Below, one piece after another: positions 4,204 to 64,000 of a stretch of 64,000 nucleotides of DNA. The position numbers were made by a program, and so were the translations under genes. Every line of letters begins with the position of its first letter. Position 1 is the stretch's first letter. The stretch comes from Kiritimatiellia bacterium. GTDB lineage: Bacteria > Verrucomicrobiota > Kiritimatiellia > RFP12 > UBA1067. Location: contig JAZTWW010000049.1 in assembly GCA_045636065.1 (NCBI GenBank), positions 5,168-69,167 on the forward strand, written 5' to 3'. The notes under the pieces were generated by a model. It made no database searches. It worked only from the letters and a program-made list of their open reading frames with translations, and was not told the DNA's origin.

Positions 4204-7200
4204 TCCGGCATGACGGCGTTAGGGTCGTTGAGGGAGTAGCCCTCTTTGCCCTGGAGAAGCTCCATCACGAACGAGGTGACGCTCTTCTTGGCGACGACCT
4301 TGACGTAATTGAGCACGAACGTGCCGTCCCACTCCTTGAAGCTATTGGCCTCGGAGAAGTACATCACCGTGCTGCCGCTGACGGCAACGCCGTTGTACTT
4401 GCCGCTGAACGTCGCCGTTCCGGCCGCCGCCACCTTGACGGTGAGCGTGTCGAGCTTGTACGTTCCGACGGCCGCCTTCACGAGAGGCGTCGCCTCGGCC
4501 TTGGTGTCCGTCGCCTTGACGGCATCGCGCTGGGCCGTCAGGAGGACGGTCTCTCCGTCCTTCTTGATGAGCGTACCCTGCATCTGGAACGCCGTCGCCG
4601 GGGCGGTCGTATCGAGGACGAGTTCGAGCACGTCGCCCGCCTTCGTCTCGAGCTCCGCAAAGAGCATGCCCTTGCCGTCAAGCTCGTCCCACGACGCGGC
4701 CGAGAACGAATACGTGGCGTCCTGGAGAGTGACCTTCGCCGTGATCTTGCCGGCGGCAGTCACGCTCGCCGTGAAGAGGCCCTTGACATTCTCGGGATCG
4801 ACGTAGTCGCAGTCGGGGCCGTCGCCGCATCCGGCGAGCACCTTGCCCTCGGTGTACGCGAAGCCGTTGAACGTGCCGACGGACGTGGGAAGCGCATTTA
4901 CGGTGATGTTGATGTTGAACACGCTAGAGGTCTTTCCGGCTGTCGTGGTGGCCGTGATCTTGACGGCGGAGGGGGTCGTAAGACCGCTCTTGGCGTTGAC
5001 CTTGGACGGCGTGGTGGGCGTTCCGGAGATGCTGTACTCCTTCGTCTCCTTGTCCTGGACGAGCTTGAGGCCGGCGGGAAGACCTGTCGCCTTCAAGGTG
5101 TTGGCGCCGATGCTCCACGCCTCAACCGGGAACGTCACGGGGACGCCGCTGTAGACGGAGAGTTCAATGGGGTCGGCATCGGGGGCATACGATTCGCCGT
5201 TGAACCAGAAGGCGTAGGGGGCGTCCTCGGTCTTCGTGCAGAAGACGGCCCTGTAAGTCACGTCCTCGGTGCCGGTCGTGAAGGTGTAGGATACGTTTCC
5301 GGAGACGAGCTCTACGCCCTGGTACCAGCCTGTGAAGACGCTGTTCTTCGCGGCCGTGGCCTTGATGGTGACCTTCTTGTTGGCCGGATAGGAGCCGGCG
5401 CCTGTCACGGTACCTGTGGCGGAGGGGTCGTCGTAGCTCCCCGTTTCGAGCGTCACCGTCACGTTCTTCACGAGAATGAAGATCGTCGCGACCTCGGTGG
5501 CGGCGCCGGCCATCTTGGCGGTGAGCGTCACCGTGTAGCCGCCAGCCTTGGTGGGCGTACCCGCGATGCCGGTCGTCTTGTTGTACTTGAGGCCCGTGGG
5601 AAGGCCAGCGACCGTAAGGTTGTACCCCTTCTCGACTTCGGGGACGATAGGATCGATGGCAACTCCGGCCACGTACACGTAGGCGTCCATCTCAGGCGAA
5701 ATGCCTCTGATCTTCTCGCTCGTCATGTTCGGGAACTTGATCGAGACCGTCTTCTTGACGGGGTCCTTGTTCGTCACATTGGTGGCGGAAATCTCGAACG
5801 TGTATTCGCCAGGGGTCGAAAGCGTGCCGGTGACGGTAAGAGACGCCGCATTGAACGTGAGCCCCTTGGGAAGGCCGGTGACGGTCACGTTGGGAAGCGA
5901 AACGGACGTGACGCCGATCTCGACATTGACCTCGCCCGCGTCGCCCGTCGTGAACTCGTCCTCCATGTCGATGGAAAGAGCGTCCTCTTCGGAGTCCGCG
6001 AACGTCGCCTGCCAGGTGGCAGGCGAATCGGCCGCCAGCAGGAAGGTGAACGAGGGCGTACGGTAGTCGAAGCCTTCAATATCCACTGCGTCGCCGTTCT
6101 GGTCGAGCCAGCCGGAGAAGACGCTTCCCTCGGCGGGAGTCGCTGTGACGGTGACCTTCGCGAGAGGCGCATAGGCTCCCTCGCCCGACACCTCGCCCTT
6201 GCCCGTACCGTTCTCCGAGACGGACACGTCGACGTACCTGTACTCGCCGGACTTCACGTAGACGGTCCTGGAGAAGCTTTCAGTCTTGAGCTTGTCGTCG
6301 TCGTTGTAGTAGGCGCCCTTGCCGGTGATCGTGAACGGGCCCTCCTTGCTGGGCGTACCGTATGCGGTGTAGACGGTGGCTCCGTCAATTGTCGTCTTCT
6401 TGAGCGTAAGCCCGGTGGGAAGCCCGGAGATGGCCGTGGGGCCGGTCTTCTCGTAGTACTCGCCGAGAGTGACGCCATCCTCGCCGAGCGATTCGCCGAC
6501 GGAAAGGTTCTCAAGACCGCCGAGATCTACTCCAAGATCGTCCGGGCTGAAGGGATCGACTATCACGAGCGAATTGGCCGTCTCCTTGGAACCGTCCTCG
6601 AATGTGACGGTTGCCGTGGCGACGAACGTGCCGGCCTTCTTGGGGGCGCCCTTGATGAAGTAGCTCCTGTCGCCGTCCTCGCTCTCCTTGGCGAGGCTGA
6701 GGCCGGAAGGAAGCCCCTTCACGGAGATGCTCTTTATGTCGGCGCTGATGCCGAAAAGCGCGTCGATGGGCTCGTCGCCCACATCCTCGCCGTAGGAGCA
6801 GTAGAAGTCGTTCGGCGTGATGTTGCCGGACGCCGTGGGCCTTCCGGAGACCGTCATGACAGCGTAGTCGCTGTACTTGAAGCCGTTGGCGTTCGTGGCC
6901 GTGGCCTTGACGGTGTACACGCCGAGCTTAGAGGGCGTGCCGGAGATGATGCAGACGGGCTCATCCTCTTCATCTACGCCCATCTCGCTCACGAGACCGG
7001 CGGGGAGCCCGGTGAAGGAGACCGTCGGATCGGAGCCGGAATCGAGCGCGAAGACGATCCTGTTGTCTACCTCGACCTCCCTCTTCTCTCCTGTTTCCGG
7101 ATCCTCCTCCTCATAGGTGTAGTAAAGGCTTTCACCCTCTGTAAGCGTCTGGCTCAGCGAAAGCGATGCGTCGAACCTGAGGAAGTCGTCCTTCGCCTCA

Positions 7201-26466: not shown

Positions 26467-26934
26467 CTACCAACCGGAGCGCTCCATGTCGCGCCTGACG
26501 GCCTTCTCCTTTAGGGAATCGCGCTTGTCGTGCAGGTTCTTGCCGCGCGCCACGCCAAGCTCCAGCTTTACGCGCCCCTTCTTTAGATACAGCCTCAAAG
26601 GTATCAGCGTAAGGCCCTTCGCCTCCGTCTTCATCTTTAGAAGCTGTATCTCCTTCGCGTGCACGAGGAGCTTCCTGTTCCTTTTCGGGTCGTGGTTGAA
26701 CCTGTTGCCGAAGGCGTATACGGGGATGTTCATCTGCACGATGAAAAGCTCGCCCCCGAGAACGGCACCATAAGCTCCGGCAAGGGAGGCCTCGCCCCTT
26801 CTCACCACCTTGACCTCGGTGCCAGTCAACGCAATACCGCACTCGATCTTTTCGAGTACGGTATAGTCGTGCCACGCCCTGCGGTTTACGGCGAGGTCGC
26901 CCACTTCAGGGGCCTTCTTTCCGCTTGCCGCCAT
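26467..26934 (-). CDS. smpB: SsrA-binding protein
   Basis: 155 aa. AVNRRAWHDYTVLEKIECGIALTGTEVKVVRRG.ASL..AY... and C-terminal KKGRVKLELGVARGK.LHDKRD are typical of SmpB. Confidence 0.95.
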   Translation of the reverse strand: MAASGKKAPEVGDLAVNRRAWHDYTVLEKIECGIALTGTEVKVVRRGEASLAGAYGAVLGGELFIVQMNIPVYAFGNRFNHDPKRNRKLLVHAKEIQLLKMKTEAKGLTLIPLRLYLKKGRVKLELGVARGKNLHDKRDSLKEKAVRRDMERSGW

Positions 26935-27210
26935 TTACAGCGTGAATATGGACTTGCTCGCCGCGTGCTTGTTCCACTTCGTCTTGGCATCCTCCGCGCG
27001 GGCGATCGCGTCGAAGTCAATCTCGGAGATGAGCTTGCCTTCCGCGACCTCCCTCAAAGCGATGTCAACCTTGTCCTCATCCGAAGAATGAGGCTTGACG
27101 AGCGGCTTTTCGCCGTTTATAAGCTGCTTGGCGCGCTTTGAAATGAGATTGACGAGCACAGGAACCGAAGGGACGCGCTCGTGGGCCTGCTTAAGCAATT
27201 CTGTATCCAT
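26935..27210 (-). CDS. rpoZ: DNA-directed RNA polymerase subunit omega (probable)
   Basis: VLVNLISKRAKQLINGEKPLV matches the omega core motif (LV..A..RARQL..G..PLV). Start set at the ATG MDTELL (27208-27210) with GAGAGGAAAG RBS. The ORF-track start at 27228 is a TTG. Confidence 0.6.
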   Translation of the reverse strand: MDTELLKQAHERVPSVPVLVNLISKRAKQLINGEKPLVKPHSSDEDKVDIALREVAEGKLISEIDFDAIARAEDAKTKWNKHAASKSIFTL

Positions 27211-27240
27211 GATGAACTTTCCTCTCAAAAGGGAAGTGGT

Positions 27241-27246
27241 ATTATA
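27241..27246 (-). promoter_or_regulatory. Putative -10 element (TATAAT on minus strand) for rpoZ-smpB
   Basis: Minus strand reads atttagTATAATaccac, about 30 nt upstream of the rpoZ ATG. Confidence 0.35.
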
Positions 27247-27293
27247 CTAAATATCTCGGCAAAAATCAAGCCCCTTGCAAATTTTGGTGGCGT

Positions 27294-27377
27294 GTCACGC
27301 TCATGTCACGCTCATGTCACGTTCATGTCACGCTTTTGTCACGCTTTTGTCACGTTCATGTCACGCTCATGTCACAC
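27294..27377. repeat. Tandem array of 7.6 copies of an 11-bp unit (GTCACGCTCAT, with variants GTCACGTTCAT and GTCACGCTTTT) in a divergent intergenic region
   Basis: Read directly: gtcacgctcat gtcacgctcat gtcacgttcat gtcacgctttt gtcacgctttt gtcacgttcat gtcacgctcat gtcacac. The period is about one helical turn. The array ends 19 bp upstream of the TATAAT at 27397. Confidence 0.9.
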
Positions 27378-27393
27378 AAGGAAAACGGAAATC

Positions 27394-27402
27394 TGCTATA
27401 AT
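27394..27402 (+). promoter_or_regulatory. Extended -10 promoter (TGcTATAAT) for the + strand two-gene cassette
   Basis: ctgcTATAATctcg with TG at -15/-14. No good -35; that position is occupied by the last TGTCAC repeat units. Followed by AAGGAG RBS 7 nt before the ATG at 27444. Confidence 0.5.
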
Positions 27403-27443
27403 CTCGGGCGCAAGGCGCTTAAGGCGCAGAAAGGAGATGAACG

Positions 27444-27785
27444 ATGATCACCGAAGAGATCGCAGAAGAGCAGTCGAGGTTCCCGGAGACGCTTCCGTAC
27501 CCCACGAGAAAGGTGGATGTCGCGGGGGAAATGATCGAGGAATACATCATACCCGAAAGCGACAGAGGGGAGGTGCTGGACATGCTCTACCCCTTCAGCC
27601 CCGTGCCGTCGCTTGACGACACCTTCCTCGATCTCCACGAGAACAGGCGCTTTCTGGTGAGGGACTTCAAGGTCATACAGGGCATCGGCATGCCCTTTCT
27701 GATGAGCCCCTACTGGGAGCATAGCGGAGGGTCAGTCATAGACTGGGTATCAAGAAGGTCATGCCGCAAGGGGCGGGTCCGCTGA
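27444..27785 (+). CDS. Hypothetical protein (113 aa)
   Basis: ATG with perfect AAGGAG RBS. Only + strand coding region in the window. No recognisable domain (MITEEIAEEQSRFPETLPYPTRKVDVAGEMIEEYIIPESDRGEVLDMLYPF...). Confidence 0.5.
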   Translation: MITEEIAEEQSRFPETLPYPTRKVDVAGEMIEEYIIPESDRGEVLDMLYPFSPVPSLDDTFLDLHENRRFLVRDFKVIQGIGMPFLMSPYWEHSGGSVIDWVSRRSCRKGRVR

Positions 27786-28060
27786 TGGGCTGGGTGCACA
27801 TAATGGGCACCTACATCCTTATGGGCAGGGAGGTCACCCTGCCCATGTCCCGGCGCATCGACTCCGTCGAGCGCGCACGGGCGTATGAAGACGGGTATGC
27901 CGTAGGCTACGACGACGGATGGCACGGCATACCCGAGGGGCGGCACAACATAGCCGCCGCGAGCGGTCTCGGCGACAGGTACGACAGGACGTACCAGGAC
28001 GGATACTGGAAAGGATATGAAAGCGGCCGCCGCACGGCGGCCGACTGCGCCGTCATGTGA
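27785..28060 (+). CDS. Hypothetical protein (91 aa) with YxDGY-type short repeats
   Basis: Starts at an ATG overlapping the upstream stop (TGATG), suggesting translational coupling. The ORF track lists a longer version from 27761. Repeats [13 protein letters not shown] / [12 protein letters not shown]. The 3' end overlaps the convergent infA by 8 nt. Confidence 0.4.
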
Positions 28061-28304
28061 ACTGGCGCGGGGCGGCGGCGTCTTTATGGCGGTATGTGAT
28101 GCGCCCCTTCTGGAGATCGTAGGGGCTGATCTCGACATCCACCTTGTCGCCGATTGCGATCTTGATGAAGAACTTGCGCATCTTTCCCGAGATGTGCGCG
28201 AGAATCTGGTGGCCGTTCTCAAGCTGGACAGTGTACATCGTCGCAGGAAGCACCTTTATGACGGTGCCGGTAACTTTAATCGCCTGGTCTTCTTCTTTGG
28301 CCAT
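28053..28304 (-). CDS. infA: Translation initiation factor IF-1
   Basis: [62 protein letters not shown] is the canonical IF-1 S1-like fold sequence. Has a short C-terminal extension. Confidence 0.9.
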
Positions 28305-28394
28305 ACAAGCCTTTCGTATCGTATTTGCAATTTAGCCGGCAGCCGTCGGAAAAGGCGGCCGCCGGACCAGTAATCGAATCTGGCCTGATTCGAC

Positions 28395-28844
28395 TCAGTT
28401 GATCGAGCCGAGGGCGATCAGCGTAAAGACCATCGTGAAGATTGCGACGGTCTCGACGATGCCGAGCGCGGCGAGATAGTTCGTGAAGCCCTGGTTCGTC
28501 TCGGCCTGGCTATCGCATGCGGATGCACCGGCGCGGCCCTGGAAGAGGGCCGAAAGGCCGATTCCGAGACCGGCGAAGATGCCGAGAAGAAGGCACGCAA
28601 GACCCGTACCCGGTACGGTTCCCTGCTTGCCGAGCATGATGAACATGAGAATCATTCCGTAGAGCGTCTGGGTGATGGGCGCACCGACGAAGGAGAGGAG
28701 AAGGAAGGGAGCGGGCTTGTTGGCCGCATAGCACTTCTTCCACGCCCCGACGGCAGCGGCCGCGGCGAAACCAGTACCGAACGCCGAACCGGCGGCGCTC
28801 AAACCCAAGCAGGCGATTGCGCCCGCGACAATCATCGGATCCAT
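28395..28844 (-). CDS. ntpK: V/A-type ATPase proteolipid subunit K (c subunit)
   Basis: 149 aa, 4 TM helices, Gly/Ala-rich (GAIACLGLSAAGSAFGTG..; GLSALFQGRAGASA). Directly downstream of the subunit I gene. Confidence 0.75.
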   Translation of the reverse strand: MDPMIVAGAIACLGLSAAGSAFGTGFAAAAAVGAWKKCYAANKPAPFLLLSFVGAPITQTLYGMILMFIMLGKQGTVPGTGLACLLLGIFAGLGIGLSALFQGRAGASACDSQAETNQGFTNYLAALGIVETVAIFTMVFTLIALGSIN

Positions 28845-54471: not shown

Positions 54472-54900
54472 CTATTTCTGCTTTGTTGCCTGGATGCGTC
54501 CCTGCGCATCGCGGTACGTCGTCTTCCCGTAGCTGTCGGTGGTGGAAGTCCCCGTTATGCGGCCCATGGCGTCGCGGTATGTGGTCTTCCCGTAGCTGTC
54601 GGTGGTGGAAGTCCCCGTTATGCGGCCCATGGCATCACGGTATGTGGTCTTCCCGTAGGAGTCGGTTGTGGCAGTTCCCTGCTGGCGGCCCATCGCGTCG
54701 CGGTACGTGGTCTTTCCGCGGGAGTCGGTGTCGGCGGTTCCCTGCTTGCGGCCCATTGCGTCGCGGTACGTGGTCTTCCCGCGGGAGTCCGTGTCGGCAG
54801 TCCCCTTCTGGCGGCCCATCGCATCGCGGTAGACCTCCTTCGAACCTGCAAACGAGACCGCCGACATGGCGGCAAGCGCAACAACGAGGATGTTATTCAT
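54472..54900 (-). CDS. Small secreted protein made of 21-aa tandem repeats (YRDAMGRxxGTxxTDSxGKTT x5 plus a partial copy)
   Basis: Start at MNNILVVALAAMSAVSFAGS (ATG complement 54898-54900; AAGGAG RBS). The ORF-track 5' extension is unsupported. Protein is almost entirely repeats. Confidence 0.6.
   Translation of the reverse strand: MNNILVVALAAMSAVSFAGSKEVYRDAMGRQKGTADTDSRGKTTYRDAMGRKQGTADTDSRGKTTYRDAMGRQQGTATTDSYGKTTYRDAMGRITGTSTTDSYGKTTYRDAMGRITGTSTTDSYGKTTYRDAQGRIQATKQK
54507..54880. repeat. 63-bp tandem repeat, about 5.9 copies (coding repeats of the small secreted protein)
   Basis: Repeat-initiating cat(g/c)gcg recurs at 54565, 54628, 54691, 54754, 54817 (exact 63-bp spacing). Units are about 85-95% identical. 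Confidence 0.85.
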
Positions 54901-55427: not shown

Positions 55428-55556
55428 CTATGAGCGGTTCCCGCCCATTGCGGAGCGCAAACCGATGTATGTCGCCCCGAAGACCCGCCCTTCACCATAT
55501 TCCGCCACTAGCATCTGGGCGATTACTTTGGGGACAGCCTCTGATAAAATCCTATG
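55428..55556 (-). pseudogene. Remnant duplicating the 3' end of gene 58205..59320 (encodes ...ILSEAVPKVIAQMLVAEYGEGRVFGATYIGL...)
   Basis: ORF 55428..55697 C-terminus aligns with the C-terminus of the 58205..59320 product (ILSEAVPNEIAQMLVAEYGEGRIFAPPYIGL). Lies within the left direct repeat. No intact upstream coding region. Confidence 0.5.
55462..55551. repeat. Left copy of a ~90-bp direct repeat flanking the R-M cassette (partner 58239..58328)
   Basis: Shared ccgatgtatg...cgcccttcaccatattccgccactagcatctgggcgat(t/a)(t/c)(c/t)(a/t)ttggggacagcctctgataaaatc. 66-bp core with 3 mismatches, plus a 10-bp upstream match. Confidence 0.85.
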
Positions 55557-57207
55557 AGAATGCAAAATACTGCTCGACCATTTTCTGGCAACGTCTGCCG
55601 CCTGCCCTTGAAACGACGCGTTCCACACATGTATCGATTTTCGCAATATCACGCTCTCCATAAAGCCCGACAAGAGAATCAATGTCTTGCGCATCAAGGC
55701 TGTCCCATGCCGGTATGTGTACGCTCCTGAGATTCTGCGCCTGATAGCGAATGCTTCCGCCTCGCATCTGTGTCGAAAAGCGCCTCACTTGATCCGTGAC
55801 AAAGGAGCTTCGCAATATGACGCACAGTGCCTTCATATTCCACGAATTAGATGTTATCCAATACACGTTATGGTGCGGATAATATTCGCCATGTTCATCT
55901 AGCGCCACATTGCCGCCCTTCTGGATGTCAGGCAAAAGTATCTTTACGGATTTGAGCGTGCTGTACTTGATTCTGTCAAGTGTCCTATACCATGAGTCAG
56001 GATGTTTCCGCGCGCAGTAGCGGGATTTCAGCTTTTCGGCATTATTGTTCAAGTATGCCCTGGCTTTGGGGAACCTGTCCAAATCAAGCATAAGTCTGTC
56101 GTCAAAATGATCGTATGGATTAAGCATGTATCTGCTGTTCCATTCGATACATCCATCCCTAATGTCATCTGACGTTACAAGCGGCAGAAGACAAGATTCC
56201 TCTATTTCCGCATTTTTCTGGGGATCCAGGTAGATTTCATCGGCCCCTGACGCGACGCCTATGCCGACATGCGTGCCGACGCCAGATTCCTCGATTGTAG
56301 GGAATCTGCCGGCAATATCCTCCAGCCGCGCCTTTTCGTCTCTGTCGGTGCTCGCCCAAGGCTCACCATGTCGATACCATTTGTCGAAGCGGCACAAGCA
56401 TGATTTTGCAACGCCTGTCATGCACATAGACAAAGCATCGCCCTCGATTGACGAAATCTCTCCGGCATATGTCTCTCGCCCGACATGACGATCAATTACG
56501 TATATCGCCGGATATGCCGACACTGCGGTCTCAAAAGGCTGCGAATGCTCCATGTTCAAGTAAAGCGCCACATGGAAATCCTCGCCTATCATATGTCTCA
56601 GACGCTTCCCGTAGTTGGTTCTGACGAACCTATTGGAGCAGATGAACGAGAGAACGCCGCGTTTCGACAAAAGCGATAGTGACCGCTCGAAAAACGGCAC
56701 GTAAATGTCGCACCGTTCAGTGAACGTGGCATACCGCGCCTTGTACCATTTTTGCTTATCGGTTGATAGATTGTCAAAGCGTATATATGGCGGATTGCCA
56801 ATCACCACGTCGAAATGGGCACCTTCAAAATCGTAAAGAAGAAAATCCTCGCAGAAGAACCAGCGATCGACAAGCCTTTCGCAAACATCTTCCGGACAGC
56901 CAGCACAGACAAGTTTTGCCTTTACGGACTTGCGGACCAGCGAAATACTTTCACTGGAAATATCGAATGCTGCAAGAAAGCCGTCAAGTGATTCATCGCG
57001 CCAGTCGGGCGTCTCGGAAATAAGCGAGTCAACAATTGGCAACACAAACGCACCATCCCCGCAACTTGGCTCAAGAATCCGCAGCCCGCTCCATTTGCTA
57101 AAGCCGCCGGCGCGTCTGGTCTCGTGCATCATGTATAAAACGACCTCCGGGCGCGTGAATACGGCGCCTGTCGTTCGATGAGTAGGGACTGAGATGCCGA
57201 GTTTCAC
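55552..57207 (-). CDS. Gamma-class N6-adenine DNA methyltransferase, TaqI-like family (size and architecture as in M.PaeR7I/M.XhoI)
   Basis: 551 aa. N-terminal TGAVFTRPEVVLYMM (TaqI-like T.PEVV motif), SCGDGAF (motif I), VIGNPPYIRFDNL (motif IV NPPY). GTG start overlapping the upstream stop (GTGA). Visibly AT-richer codon usage than neighbours. Confidence 0.8.
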   Translation of the reverse strand: MKLGISVPTHRTTGAVFTRPEVVLYMMHETRRAGGFSKWSGLRILEPSCGDGAFVLPIVDSLISETPDWRDESLDGFLAAFDISSESISLVRKSVKAKLVCAGCPEDVCERLVDRWFFCEDFLLYDFEGAHFDVVIGNPPYIRFDNLSTDKQKWYKARYATFTERCDIYVPFFERSLSLLSKRGVLSFICSNRFVRTNYGKRLRHMIGEDFHVALYLNMEHSQPFETAVSAYPAIYVIDRHVGRETYAGEISSIEGDALSMCMTGVAKSCLCRFDKWYRHGEPWASTDRDEKARLEDIAGRFPTIEESGVGTHVGIGVASGADEIYLDPQKNAEIEESCLLPLVTSDDIRDGCIEWNSRYMLNPYDHFDDRLMLDLDRFPKARAYLNNNAEKLKSRYCARKHPDSWYRTLDRIKYSTLKSVKILLPDIQKGGNVALDEHGEYYPHHNVYWITSNSWNMKALCVILRSSFVTDQVRRFSTQMRGGSIRYQAQNLRSVHIPAWDSLDAQDIDSLVGLYGERDIAKIDTCVERVVSRAGGRRCQKMVEQYFAFS

Positions 57208-57923
57208 GATTGTGCAACTAGATGATTGTAGAGCGACGAGAAGAAACGCATGGCACCAACAGCCTCACCTCCATCGCACACCGAAGCTGTCGCCTTGTCA
57301 GATACCAGAAGCGCCGTGGCCGTATAATCGCGTTCTAGCACAAGTCGTTCGCAAAGAATCTCGTATCGCCTGAGATAGCTTGTGCCTTCAAACACGGGAA
57401 GCGGCGGCAACGGGCTTTTGGCAATATTGACGGCACGATCTGAAGCAGGGGAATTTTCCAAGAAAAACAGATAACCAAGCCAAGGTGCAGGCACGACGCC
57501 AAAAACGCGCTCACGGTATGCCGTCCAAAAATCCCGTGACACGCCAAGCACTTCTTCTGAACGGTTGTTGAAATTATTCCCGAAACTGCCGCTTTGAGAC
57601 TTCAACTCTATCGCCGCGACGAGCTTGCCTTCACGAAGCACTACAATGTCCCAGTTTTTCTGCGGCCGATAATATCCCGGAACTGGAACAGCCCTGTCGA
57701 AAAATATCTCAGTTTTTGCGAACCCTGCCATTACGCAAATTTCCTCGATTAGCTTGGCAAAGCCATCGAGATGGCGGCCACCCGTAACTTGGCCTCGCGT
57801 TCCAGCATCGGAAGTGCCACGCTTTTTCTGCGCTGACGCCTGCTGTTGCCGCGTTTTCCAGTAAAACTTGGCCGCTTTCTTCAGCTTTTGCTGGAATTCA
57901 GTTTCTGTATAAGGAAATGACAT
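57204..57923 (-). CDS. Putative type II restriction endonuclease (size and context suggest XhoI/PaeR7I family)
   Basis: 239 aa from MSFPYTETEF (ATG complement 57921-57923; the ORF track extends to 57965). Immediately upstream of and overlapping the MTase. No recognisable family match otherwise. Acidic/Lys active-site candidates (DIVVLREGKLVAAIELKSQ). Confidence 0.5.
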   Translation of the reverse strand: MSFPYTETEFQQKLKKAAKFYWKTRQQQASAQKKRGTSDAGTRGQVTGGRHLDGFAKLIEEICVMAGFAKTEIFFDRAVPVPGYYRPQKNWDIVVLREGKLVAAIELKSQSGSFGNNFNNRSEEVLGVSRDFWTAYRERVFGVVPAPWLGYLFFLENSPASDRAVNIAKSPLPPLPVFEGTSYLRRYEILCERLVLERDYTATALLVSDKATASVCDGGEAVGAMRFFSSLYNHLVAQS

Positions 57924-57929
57924 GCTGAT

Positions 57930-57938
57930 ATTATACCA
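57930..57938 (-). promoter_or_regulatory. Putative extended -10 (TGGTATAAT on minus strand) for the R-M operon. Predicts a leaderless or near-leaderless endonuclease mRNA.
   Basis: Minus strand reads aaaaTGGTATAATatcagcATG. The -10 ends 7 nt before the ATG at 57923. Confidence 0.35.
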
Positions 57939-58204
57939 TTTTCCTTTCTGGGACTGCAACTGCAACTTTTCTTAAAAGCTCCGCAATGGGCGCAACGCTC
58001 ATAATCCGCATGGGGGGCGCGCAGTTTTGGGTGGCAGGGTTCGCAAATGGTTCGGGGCTTTTCGGCCTTTTTCTCGCCCCGGCGATCGCGAGGAAGCATT
58101 TTTAGGGGATGTGCCCGAGCCGGGGCAGCTCTCGGGCAACGCTTACGCACATCCAATCCGCCATAATGCTTCTGTAATCGTCGGGGCGAAAAGGCCTCCA
58201 AGCC

Positions 58205-62400: not shown

Positions 62401-63740
62401 TCTGCACTATTAGACGCGCCAGCGTTGCCCCAGGATGTTGTACCTGTCTGCTGAACTCCATTAACATATGTGAAGTTGAAGCCGTTGATGGTATCGTAGC
62501 CGAACTGGGCTCCATCCTGATCAGTGGAGTGATAGACGATAACGCGATAATGCTCGTAAGGGATGCCTGTGATTGTAACAGTCGGGGTAGGCCCGCCAGC
62601 ACTTTCGTCGATATAGCCGTGGAGCGGATTGCTCGCTGGTGTGAGGTTGGCGCAGTTCCAGTGTCCGCGAGTGCCAGAAATCGAGACGCTAACGCCGGAA
62701 GCCACGGAGGCCGCGCCGGTGGAATCGATGGCGTTGACGGTGTTGAACGTTGCATTGTCGGCCACAACAAAATTGTTCCAGGAAGTTCCGGGGACTGCAT
62801 AACCATCAAGACCGACATCGGCAGAGGTCGTGAGGCCGTTGCCCGCATCGTTCGTGAAGTTGATGTTGATGGACGGGGTGTAGGCCGCTTCTGCTGGATC
62901 GCCATCGACATAGTAGAGAACGATGCCAGTTGAGGTCTGGACGAGTTCGCAAGTGCCGACCTTCTCGCTTCCAGTAAGCGTGGTAGAGCCAGAGGTGACG
63001 GACGAAAGAGCTTTGGTGCAGACAAGATTTCCTTCAGAATCCTTTATCTTGATTGACGCATCAGCTGTGAAGGTGGGCGTAGAAGAGGTGAAGGAAACGA
63101 GCGTCTTGGACGACACCTGCGAAGTGCCGGTAAGCGTGACATCCGCCATCTTGATCTTGTGGTAGGCGGCGGAAACGGCCTGGTACGAGACGCTGCCCGC
63201 ACCCTTCAGGTAATATTCAAATGTGTTGTTGGCATTGACAGACGTGAGGTCAACATTCCACGCAATGCCGTTCGCTCTGGCCACGGAAAGCTTGATTGCC
63301 TGACCATCGGTAATATTGCCGCCGCCAAAGCCGCCTATCGTCAACTGCGAGGTTTCGTCAACGGTCATCCACATCGTAGTGTCGCCCTGATACTTGACGA
63401 AGGTGTTCATCGTGACGTTGGCGCCGTTGTAGAGACCCATGCGAAGGTTCCAGCCCTCAACCGACATCGTGGCGTTGATGTTGATGGTGTCGCCGTCAAA
63501 AAGGATTGGATCCCATGTGTTTTCGCCGGACTTCGCGGGTGTGCCAGACGGATTAGCACCGCTGGAATCCTGCCAATTTCCCGTGCCATTCCACGCATCA
63601 GTGCCGACGAACTTCCACGTGTAGTTCTCAGTTTCACCGGTGACGGGGTTCGGCTTCGCAAAGTCCGCCCATGCGCCTCCATATGCCGCGACTGCCAAGA
63701 GCAGCGCGAACGCTTTGATTCTACTCATTAATGATTTCAT
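59427..63740 (-). CDS. Giant (1437 aa) secreted beta-helix repeat protein with autotransporter-associated (PATR-like) beta-strand repeats. Putative adhesin.
   Basis: Signal peptide MKSLMSRIKAFALLLAVAAYGGAWA. Strong GAAGGAG RBS. Recurrent G.GTLTL.G...T....V..G.L-type segments (GSGTLTLSGSEKITAATIDVAKDVVLNVN; GGTGGTLTLSGTQDVTIPATISGSVNLTG). Thr/Ser/Gly/Asn-rich. Confidence 0.7.
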   Translation of the reverse strand: MKSLMSRIKAFALLLAVAAYGGAWADFAKPNPVTGETENYTWKFVGTDAWNGTGNWQDSSGANPSGTPAKSGENTWDPILFDGDTININATMSVEGWNLRMGLYNGANVTMNTFVKYQGDTTMWMTVDETSQLTIGGFGGGNITDGQAIKLSVARANGIAWNVDLTSVNANNTFEYYLKGAGSVSYQAVSAAYHKIKMADVTLTGTSQVSSKTLVSFTSSTPTFTADASIKIKDSEGNLVCTKALSSVTSGSTTLTGSEKVGTCELVQTSTGIVLYYVDGDPAEAAYTPSININFTNDAGNGLTTSADVGLDGYAVPGTSWNNFVVADNATFNTVNAIDSTGAASVASGVSVSISGTRGHWNCANLTPASNPLHGYIDESAGGPTPTVTITGIPYEHYRVIVYHSTDQDGAQFGYDTINGFNFTYVNGVQQTGTTSWGNAGASNSAEPIEEGVNTLVSAVLTGDTVTMVAHRIGGGTPSARGCFAAIQVVEYVPEVGENDLEIAVDGATEYAVNEEKNLSGTVYLTGSGTLTLSGSEKITAATIDVAKDVVLNVNADRLDATTFTGAGMVVYNGSAPVTGKGWTAIGWSGTVWVKNISNLVGSSFDMNEYGNNSSTLKVSMLKGWINTGTTDVAPALELDGDCEYALWLSNGNGYNSNNGSRTQLRELKGSGLLKGSDSAPNVLLLVKKWDNFSGSFELNNKIVVFGSSLPTQATVSGGGYVVVNSGSSVEIPSGKTWSVNNGFIVNGTLTATGSMAATTGSTSTSLVKGSGTVVFDGKAPSPTADAWWKNANWAGTVEIKNHNFNANIQLALYGNTGSKVCMNGTEAYLALGNDAHNIGELIIGSGGFTQDGNYTSSDVSITVPSKVTGSGTYNLATTGIAKKTVYLTGDLSEFDGYLSAGGDNSRFVVGSTSREFVASSVVVGNGKVLSLGNFNNGPAGGLFIDEGGNVILKDSGFLWTTGGIVVDGTFTTTGRDRWGGGTNMTLGDTGVLELTSTANAEDYSDYSTVTGTGMIKYSSTAGWRTFPSDDAKMPATTLTVQVELADSLIITKNNNGTTTIGNLAGSKNIRSDWNATSGGANDRTLTVTQSKDTEWSGKFVSNRITQFNVGGTGGTLTLSGTQDVTIPATISGSVNLTGTWVGATTVSGTFGGTGTLTGNLTFSDGATFKAADTALTVSGTVTLPTGAGETLTIDATGLDADEVTILSSSSITTETNVSKVTVANGLYNVTPVAGALKLVSYGYMDGSTAVITNTTSEISIPSSATLIKVTPTSDETTFTGITVSNIGTLNNVQIWTSGSNGANVTQAFVDAQKIGQDTTGKYLIDMGDGTYKVKFMLDESKSVNGVSVKPEVDTATTPMAVASANTTFTVKTIPGLYYGVVYGATADGTMKVESGNVVQAETSSTSLQAPVVDSGVRYFKIAVSAYEDGIPAYPAE

Positions 63741-63840: not shown

Positions 63841-63893
63841 CACTGAACACTGAACACTGAATACTGGATACTGGATACTGGATACTGAATACT
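63841..63893. repeat. Heptanucleotide tandem repeat (3x CACTGAA, 3x TACTGGA, 1x TACTGAA, plus a partial copy) about 100 bp upstream of the giant PATR-like gene
   Basis: Read directly: cactgaa cactgaa cactgaa tactgga tactgga tactgga tactgaa tactc. Lies in the 5' region of the minus-strand gene starting at 63740. Confidence 0.9.
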
Positions 63894-64000
63894 CTCCCCG
63901 CCTCCGCGCCTCTGCGTCTCTGCGCGAGAATAAAACAACGCGATCTCCGCGCGCCATTCAAACGGCGGCGCGCGCGAAGCGTATCTGGCCTATTGGCCCT

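Follow-up and report, generated by a model that had tools for sequence, protein, structure and literature searches.

An 11-bp direct-repeat array at an extended -10 promoter beside infA in a Kiritimatiellia bacterium: a probable operator of two conserved small genes

Within a 64,000-nucleotide stretch of a Kiritimatiellia bacterium genome (GenBank assembly GCA_045636065.1, contig JAZTWW010000049.1; hereafter the window), the intergenic region between rpoZ and two small plus-strand open reading frames (ORFs), A and B, carries eight 11-bp direct repeats that share a TGTCAC(G) core and end where the -35 element of the A/B promoter would be expected. We consider this array to be, more likely than not, a selected operator for a sequence-specific DNA-binding protein that would be encoded elsewhere. 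The evidence is comparative: related lineages keep the cores and their distance to the -10 element but differ in spacers, copy number, 5' untranslated region (UTR) and left flank, a pattern that supports the suggestion of a first-pass annotation that the region is an iteron-like operator array for a multimerising protein. The architecture itself is already known from helically phased direct-repeat operators and iterons; what is new here is the large and polymorphic unit number, two proteins (A and B) without known fold or function, and the tight linkage to infA. Taken strictly, the array falls into neither the Pho-box class nor the phage-origin class.

Tandem Repeats Finder calls the array at 27293-27375 with a period of 11, 7.5 copies, 88% matches and zero indels, and it also calls a 33-bp higher-order period within the array. 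Seven full units fit TGTCACG[CT]T[CT][AT] (TGTCACGCTCA for units 1, 2 and 7, TGTCACGTTCA for units 3 and 6, TGTCACGCTTT for units 4 and 5), and in the eighth, TGTCACACAAG, only the core is kept, TGTCAC(acaag). The tandem 11-bp array of 7.6 copies that had been described is therefore present as stated, its unit GTCACGCTCAT being a rotation of the one given here. TGTCACGYTYW matches eight times in the window against 0.17 expected, seven times within the array and once, on the minus strand, at 63131; since this isolated copy is the sole match outside the array, the unit is not one that is scattered through this genome. Membership in a common dispersed repeat family without regulatory context had been named in advance as grounds for giving up the operator interpretation, and we find instead that the regulatory context is kept in four lineages. 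The further proposal that every core lies on the same DNA face holds for neighbouring sites, or for DNA adjusted by a protein; as an exact statement for the whole array it does not, since by our own arithmetic a period of 11 bp against 10.5 bp per turn drifts by about 17 degrees per unit.

With position 27375 as the end of the last core, the TG of the extended -10 element begins 19 bp later and TATAAT 22 bp later, which leaves a gap of 21 bp, and there is no -35-like hexamer at the proper distance from TATAAT. The coordinates thus agree with an array that ends at the -35 position, 19 bp before TGcTATAAT, and the perfect AAGGAG ribosome-binding site reported ahead of ORF A is likewise in place (Table 1). 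Our promoter scan demands two hexamers, so the A/B extended -10 promoter is unlisted and the output consists of minus-strand promoters only; we infer a transcription start near 27409. Housekeeping promoters in this lineage are sigma-70-like. A sigma-54 reading of the core was rejected by inspection, the key dinucleotides or the -10 element being unmatched. An ECF41-type promoter, which has the form TGTCACA-N16-CGTC, was also rejected: the last unit does contain TGTCACA (27370-27376), but 16 nt further on stands CTGC or CTGG, not CGTC, and the related locus L001 has TGTGACA. Rfam returned no match at E up to 1 over positions 26800-28500.

To follow the array through evolution, we compared four metagenomic lineages of related gut bacteria that share the module, the window's own included, taken from contigs that encode A homologues. 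The window lineage has eight cores, and its nearest relatives (L003-L005; A 98% identical to the window's) have nine by virtue of an extra GCTCA unit; a third lineage (L011-L013; A 85% identical) has five cores (TGTCACGCATT TGTCACGCTTT TGTCACGGCCA AGTCACGCTCA TGTCACACAAG), and the fourth (L001, L002, L218 and L219; A 75% identical) has four (TGTCATGCATT TGTCACGCCCA TGTCACGTCCA TGTGACAATTA). The left neighbour is rpoZ in the first three and an amino-acid permease gene in the last. All four lineages have the same 21-bp distance from last core to -10 element and the same AATCTG columns ahead of the box, which itself reads TGnTATAAT or TGcTATACT (TGgTATAAT in L011, TGcTATACT in L001). Across the clade, 16 of 17 units contain TGTCAC and 14 have G at position 7; the 4-nt spacers are CTCA, TTCA, CTTT, CCCA and GCCA. 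Copy number (4, 5, 8 or 9), the left flank and the rpoZ-promoter distance also vary, as does the 5' UTR, with 35 nt in the window, about 35 nt in L011 (a weak 5-bp hairpin only) and 97 nt in L001. The array stays with A and B when the left neighbour changes and the rpoZ-promoter distance is unconserved, which indicates that it belongs to the A/B promoter and not to rpoZ. The divergent rpoZ promoter is separate from it; the same hexamer pair is found in L011, at about 59 bp from the array compared with 24 bp in the window, so that the position of the array is not tied to this promoter, and we rejected the idea that it serves as a -35 source for rpoZ.

Both downstream genes bear the marks of long residence. 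The sizes of A (113 amino acids) and B (91), the start of B at an ATG overlapping the stop of A (TGATG) and the YxDGY-type motifs of B are all as first described, and the start codon of B is supported by two close homologues of 90-91 amino acids. In comparisons of the window with two related lineages, the ratio of nonsynonymous to synonymous divergence (dN/dS) is 0.07-0.11 for A and 0.11-0.20 for B, with dS at 0.5-1.6 or saturated. By these measures A and B are real genes under purifying selection; their absence or lack of conservation in relatives, which had been put forward as a possible objection, is thus not what we observe. Their GC content at third codon positions (GC3; 0.78 for A, 0.82 for B) is at the level of neighbouring host genes, and together with the near-saturated dS this argues for long-resident genes and against a recent insertion.

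With synonymous sites near saturation, neutral intergenic DNA should have lost the cores. Constant cores combined with variable spacers at such divergence are, as far as the sequences tell, the signature of a protein-binding site array and not of a neutral microsatellite. A slippage-prone microsatellite without a dedicated binding protein, either neutral or acting as a contingency repeat whose copy number changes promoter context or DNA shape, would account for the change from 8 to 9 copies between near-identical strains, for the range of 4-9 among lineages and for the 33-bp higher-order period, which points to recent duplications. We nevertheless regard it as very improbable, because pure slippage would homogenise or decay whole units instead of keeping cores while spacers diverge. 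Moreover, the distance to the -10 element is fixed, and the 8-versus-9 difference consists of whole 11-bp units upstream of the 21-bp gap, which leaves the -10 context unaltered and the -35/-10 geometry intact, unlike in most phase-variable promoters.

The L001 locus differs from the others in two further respects. Its A/B leader (5910-6003) folds as a long hairpin of -45.6 kcal/mol (z -3.5), with none of 200 shuffles as stable. On its minus strand, at 5815-5843, the first core of the array, TGTCAT, forms the -35 ATGACA of a near-consensus extended -10 promoter (11 of 12 matches) that faces the divergent amino-acid permease gene, and array occupancy in L001 could also affect that gene.

If the array is indeed an operator, its regulator, whose gene would lie at another place in the genome or on a mobile element, would read the 7-bp core TGTCACG, tolerate the 4-bp spacer and polymerise cooperatively, head to tail, along about 88 bp, with one protomer per 11-bp unit. 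The proximal unit would cover approximately -39 to -29, the site of sigma region 4, at a promoter that lacks a -35 element and would use its consensus extended -10 TGnTATAAT to drive a short-leader bicistronic mRNA for the coupled A and B. Binding itself is a prediction, and of its two possible outcomes we take it to be somewhat more likely that the occupied array shuts the promoter off than that it activates in the manner of PhoB, since this extended -10 element should be strong enough without a -35. Gain or loss of whole units (8 versus 9) would then alter the number of cooperating sites at constant phase and constant distance to the -10 element, and would thereby tune sensitivity. The reader of the array is most likely, by analogy, a winged-helix protein; (T)GTCA(C) cores in direct repeats at 10-11 bp are known to be read by two classes, OmpR/PhoB-type response regulators and phage replisome organisers. 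As an operator, the array would be among the longest naturally phased direct-repeat operators, and its copy-number polymorphism between strains would be a natural experiment on promoter tuning by the number of cooperative sites.

We next turn to the first of these two classes. The Pho-box consensus is CTGTCATAWAW, with an A/T-rich 4-bp minor-groove segment after a 7-bp core, and at E. coli pstS the box replaces the -35 element and ends about 10 bp upstream of the -10. The array resembles OmpR/PhoB-family operators (E. coli PhoB, ArcA and OmpR; Streptomyces PhoP DRus) in its 11-bp direct repeats, where a 6-7-bp core (TGTCA in PhoB) precedes some 4 bp of weaker conservation, in its several units and in its placement against a promoter without a -35; cooperative binding on one face is a feature of the known operators. 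The PhoB site consists of two 11-bp direct repeats (PMC3978041), ArcA binds cooperatively to 2-5 repeats with 11-bp centre-to-centre spacing (PMC4173790), Streptomyces PhoP operators hold up to six 11-nt units that are bound cooperatively (PMC2275107), and Pho promoters with several tandem boxes, again bound cooperatively, are known (PMC4173790, PMC2275107). Given these precedents, a special case of the operator interpretation would be that a phosphorylated PhoB orthologue occupies the array as four tandem boxes (eight half-sites) and recruits sigma-70, A and B being phosphate-starvation genes. Direct 11-bp repeats in at least two units, a TGTCA core in every unit and a -10 without a -35 are all found here, as such a Pho-box array would have them. 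The A/T-rich segment is lacking, however, and the boxes do not end about 10 bp from the -10 element; that element is a consensus extended -10, unlike at Pho promoters, and needs no activator. No link of the array to phosphate or to a two-component system emerged: A and B show no phosphate-related features, neither pstS nor phoU occurs in the window or in any related locus retrieved, and no recognisable pst or pho neighbour was found at the 132 distinct TGTCACG arrays among the matches listed in the wider search described below (neighbours examined through BLAST clusters for all arrays, and through Pfam or inspection for a subset). Neither the window nor some 750 kb of related loci contain another Pho-like array; a single CTGTCAT-N4-CTGTCAT, in L034, lies inside a coding region. 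On balance we consider a Pho-box array unlikely here.

Some of these departures, and several other features, weigh against the operator interpretation as a whole. The array has 8-9 units compared with the 2-6 described for response-regulator operators (PMC2275107), carries G at position 7 and spacers that contain G/C where Pho boxes are A/T-rich, and has its last core 21 bp from the -10 element, one turn farther than the 10 bp at pstS. It is carried by one clade only, in which four lineages were compared; the last unit in L001 has the opposite orientation (TGTGACA), an uncommon arrangement for proteins that bind strictly head to tail; and neither the conserved block nor the set of ten window proteins scanned includes a candidate for a DNA-binding regulator.

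The second class is found at phage origins. The pattern TGTCACG-N4-TGTCACG-N4-TGTCAC was found in at least 120 metagenome contigs and 39 viral contigs. In viral contigs, the TGTCACG core occurs at 39 loci with an 11-bp period and at 120 or more with a 10-bp period, against 6 loci for a scrambled core (TCTGACG) at 11 bp; a 12-bp-period control was confounded by in-frame coding repeats, and only the other three counts are used. Many of these 12-bp repeats (L339-L441, from IMG/VR) are in-frame NVTG coding repeats (e.g., GNVTGNVT) and not iterons, a caution for motif-period statistics in general. Among the matches listed, 27 of the 132 distinct arrays lie inside a gene for 250-320 amino acids and on its strand. 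Six of eight array-bearing proteins scanned with Pfam match Phage_rep_org_N and/or DnaB_2, and the iterons in these organiser genes encode a CHAxVTxMSR-like peptide. Judged from sequence, DnaB-helicase-like or ATPase (DnaC-like) genes follow in five organiser loci, and other arrays adjoin integrase-like or helicase-like genes. The phage arrays have 3-10 units, some of them identical to those of the window (TGTCACGCTCA, TGTCACGCTTT), frequently close with TGTCACA ahead of purine-rich DNA, and contain some inverted copies, like the last unit of L001. Of the 10-bp loci, L220 was examined and matches lambdoid E. coli phages, and in phage Tritos a gene annotated as an N-terminal phage replisome organiser (TRITO_36; L448 32105-33175) holds two GTCAC clusters at 10-11-bp spacing. 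Origin repeats inside an organiser gene have a precedent in SPP1 (gp38-oriL; PMC6316719). TGTCACG iterons at 10-11 bp are, to go by these matches, very common inside phage genes for replisome organisers or O-type initiators, which shows that a protein domain reading exactly such a layout exists and is common; the motif could also serve as an origin-finding signature in phage annotation. As a separate observation, the organiser iterons (L058-L216 and L220-L338; JGI metagenome and IMG/VR) are followed by low-complexity linkers that microsatellites encode (AGAAGAG, GATCAGATC and CAGATA repeats), after which DnaB- or DnaC-like genes come in several loci.

The window array and the phage iterons thus have in common the (T)GTCAC(G) core, direct repeats at 10-11 bp, a constant core with a variable spacer, the terminal TGTCACA and the purine-rich DNA that follows, and it is tempting to speculate that a phage or mobile-element initiator reads the array, either as a sensor or decoy that couples A/B to phage replication or as a domesticated remnant of an origin. 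An A homologue beside an ArdA-like gene and a match of B to a PHROG family (both below) point in the same direction. There are also differences. Phage iterons lie inside a gene of about 300 amino acids with helicase or loader genes next to it, whereas the window array is intergenic, has no Phage_rep_org_N, helicase-loader or helicase gene nearby (its neighbours being smpB, rpoZ, infA and V-ATPase genes), and is followed by a promoter and not by a DNA-unwinding region; its fixed distance to the -10 element argues for a promoter function and not for an origin. The host-like GC3 of A and B and a residence long enough for dS to saturate speak against such an initiator as the reader, as does the fact that neither has a homologue in 50,697 GenBank phages, A has none in 72,556 PLSDB plasmids and neither matches PADLOC; the shared 7-bp core could be a product of convergence. 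We consider this second special case of the operator interpretation unlikely. Strict membership in either the Pho-box class or the phage-origin class fails on the features tested. Cross-talk between a phage initiator and a host promoter is a testable possibility raised by the shared core, and in its boldest form, which we think far-fetched, the promoter would be a phage sensor: the TGTCACG-reading organiser of an infecting phage would bind the array and switch A/B, and antisense transcription into infA would couple detection to translation initiation, or A/B would have anti-phage activity.

Instead of a protein encoded elsewhere, the genes downstream of the array could supply its ligand. Plasmid R1 parC consists of ten 11-bp iterons that flank the parMR promoter and are bound by ParR, and the array shares with it many 11-bp direct repeats abutting the promoter of a small downstream operon; cooperative operator binding is a feature of parC. 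Unlike parC, the array lies on one side of its promoter only and the locus is chromosomal, beside infA. A ParR/parC-type partition operator was rejected, as A and B lack ParM (actin-like) or ribbon-helix-helix features (Pfam, to E 10) and A has no structural match. More generally, B or an A-B complex might bind the array and repress its own promoter, as in toxin-antitoxin or partition operons, which would fit the equally narrow distribution of B and the array and the overlap of the A and B genes, common among autoregulated pairs. The two direct repeats ahead of a remote B homologue (L217, below), placed at a TATA-like box, would fit as well. We find such autoregulation distinctly doubtful, given that A is strongly acidic (isoelectric point 4.1-4.9, with frequent poly-acidic tails) and B acidic to neutral (5.8-6.8), that Pfam finds no DNA-binding domain in either even with the threshold relaxed to E 10, and that 45 other A-family loci have no upstream repeats comparable to the array; the model of B is too poor to judge. 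A resemblance of the N-terminus of B to AbrB/MazE proteins was rejected in a profile-profile comparison with an AbrB/MazE alignment, at an hhalign probability of 0.8%. No SpoVT/AbrB, ribbon-helix-helix, helix-turn-helix or Phd antitoxin domain was found in A or B (Pfam, NCBIfam, PADLOC), and a toxin-antitoxin pair was rejected as well, as were RMF-like and Yae1-like identities for B, which has no significant Pfam match (Yae1_N, at E 0.06, misses the cutoff).

ORF A represents an uncharacterised family of wide distribution. It has 15 metagenome homologues, down to 50% identity, with conserved blocks EEYIIP, VRDF+V, PFLMSPYW and SGGSVIDW, and 43 loci at 44-59% identity in species-representative genomes assembled from metagenomes (a collection that holds no genome of the window's clade), from Lentisphaerae, Aminicenantes/Acidobacteriota, Zixibacteria, Verrucomicrobia, Planctomycetes, LCP-89 and other phyla. 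Across the family (window 27444-27785; L015-L056), members of about 100 amino acids carry the motifs LPFPTR, EEYIIPE, VRDFRV, SPYY and SGG[ST]VIDW. Pfam, PHROG, NCBIfam and PADLOC give no match to A, and its AlphaFold2 model (predicted local distance difference test, pLDDT, 80), a beta-rich core with one long helix, finds none in PDB or BFVD with Foldseek, nor does a sequence profile. The family has no conserved neighbour across phyla, and outside this clade neither infA nor rpoZ nor B adjoins A. In L006 (441-1703; also L007 and L008), small ORFs on one strand follow each other, among them an A homologue of 58% identity placed immediately ahead of an ArdA-like antirestriction gene (Pfam ArdA, 28.1 bits), and a helix-turn-helix gene is nearby, an arrangement suggestive of a mobile-element leading region for part of the family. 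ORF B is restricted to this clade apart from one remote homologue besides its two close ones. Its only match in Pfam, PHROGs, NCBIfam and PADLOC is phrog_4785, of unknown function (E 1.1e-5), and its AlphaFold2 model (pLDDT 53) is too weak for a structure search. The remote homologue (L217; 42% identity, downstream of a RecQ gene) is preceded at 840-900 by a pair of direct repeats of 14-16 bp (GTGATGCCATGAAT), 19 bp apart, which stand right before a TATATAT box and its ATG. Under the operator interpretation, the array marks two conserved uncharacterised small proteins as regulated genes, one of them from a family found in at least 43 species-level metagenome-assembled genomes.

Finally, we considered the genomic setting. 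Pfam identifies the neighbours as SmpB, RpoZ (Rpb6 family) and IF-1, in agreement with the placement of the module between smpB-rpoZ and infA. All window genes confirmed by Pfam lie on the minus strand, and the transcription order on this strand is ...rpsD-rpoA-rplQ, V-ATPase genes, infA, [B A on the other strand], rpoZ, smpB. In the 20-kb related locus L218, A and B are again alone on the other strand, and the order is infA, [B A], permease, SurA-like, aminotransferase, radical SAM, rpsM...rplQ, with a sulfatase gene beyond infA. A block of about 1.1 kb made up of the array, A, B and infA is intact in both (window 27293-28304; L218 9460-10525), although both outer flanks differ (rpoZ and V-ATPase K in the window, the amino-acid permease and the sulfatase in L218); since ribosomal, SurA-like, aminotransferase and radical-SAM genes shared by the two are found elsewhere in each, either the block or what surrounds it has been rearranged. 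The neighbourhood had been called housekeeping, which understates a specific linkage that has persisted despite rearranged flanks. The coding ends of B and infA overlap by 8 bp in two of the three lineages compared, and a terminator-like hairpin of infA lies within the 3' coding end of B in all three (elsewhere at L011 2479-2498 and L001 about 6570-6600, in both with a U-rich tail). As the window has no clear plus-strand terminator after B, transcription of A/B may run antisense into infA.

Table 1. Features of the array-A-B-infA region (window coordinates)
Feature	Position	Strand	Remarks
Divergent rpoZ promoter	27241..27269	-	TTGATT-17-TATAAT, 10/12 matches
Array (proposed operator)	27293..27380	+	eight 11-bp units, core TGTCAC(G) in each
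Spacer between array and -10	27381..27393	+	promoter-proximal part (G)AAATC conserved
Extended -10 of A/B promoter	27394-27402	+	TGcTATAAT, without -35 hexamer
5' UTR hairpin	27415..27427	+	small and weak, -6.8 kcal/mol, z -0.76, not significant
Ribosome-binding site	27431-27436	+	AAGGAG, 7 nt ahead of ATG at 27444
ORF A	27444-27785	+	113 aa, acidic
ORF B	27785-28060	+	91 aa, translationally coupled to A
Terminator-like hairpin of infA	28024..28043	-	antisense within 3' end of ORF B
infA (IF-1)	28053..28304	-	Pfam eIF-1a 1.8e-25; convergent with B, 8-bp overlap; linked to A-B in all lineages

Three other features of the window were recorded in passing. A 63-bp tandem repeat at 54494-54831 (5.4 copies, 85% matches), presumably coding, has the top repeat score in the window. 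A restriction endonuclease XhoI match (Pfam, 8e-68) lies at 57204-57965 on the minus strand, adjoined by a 551-amino-acid ORF at 55552-57207. At the window edge, 63842-63925, two short tandem repeats stand next to each other, ACTGAAT in 7.4 copies and CTCCGCGC in 4.

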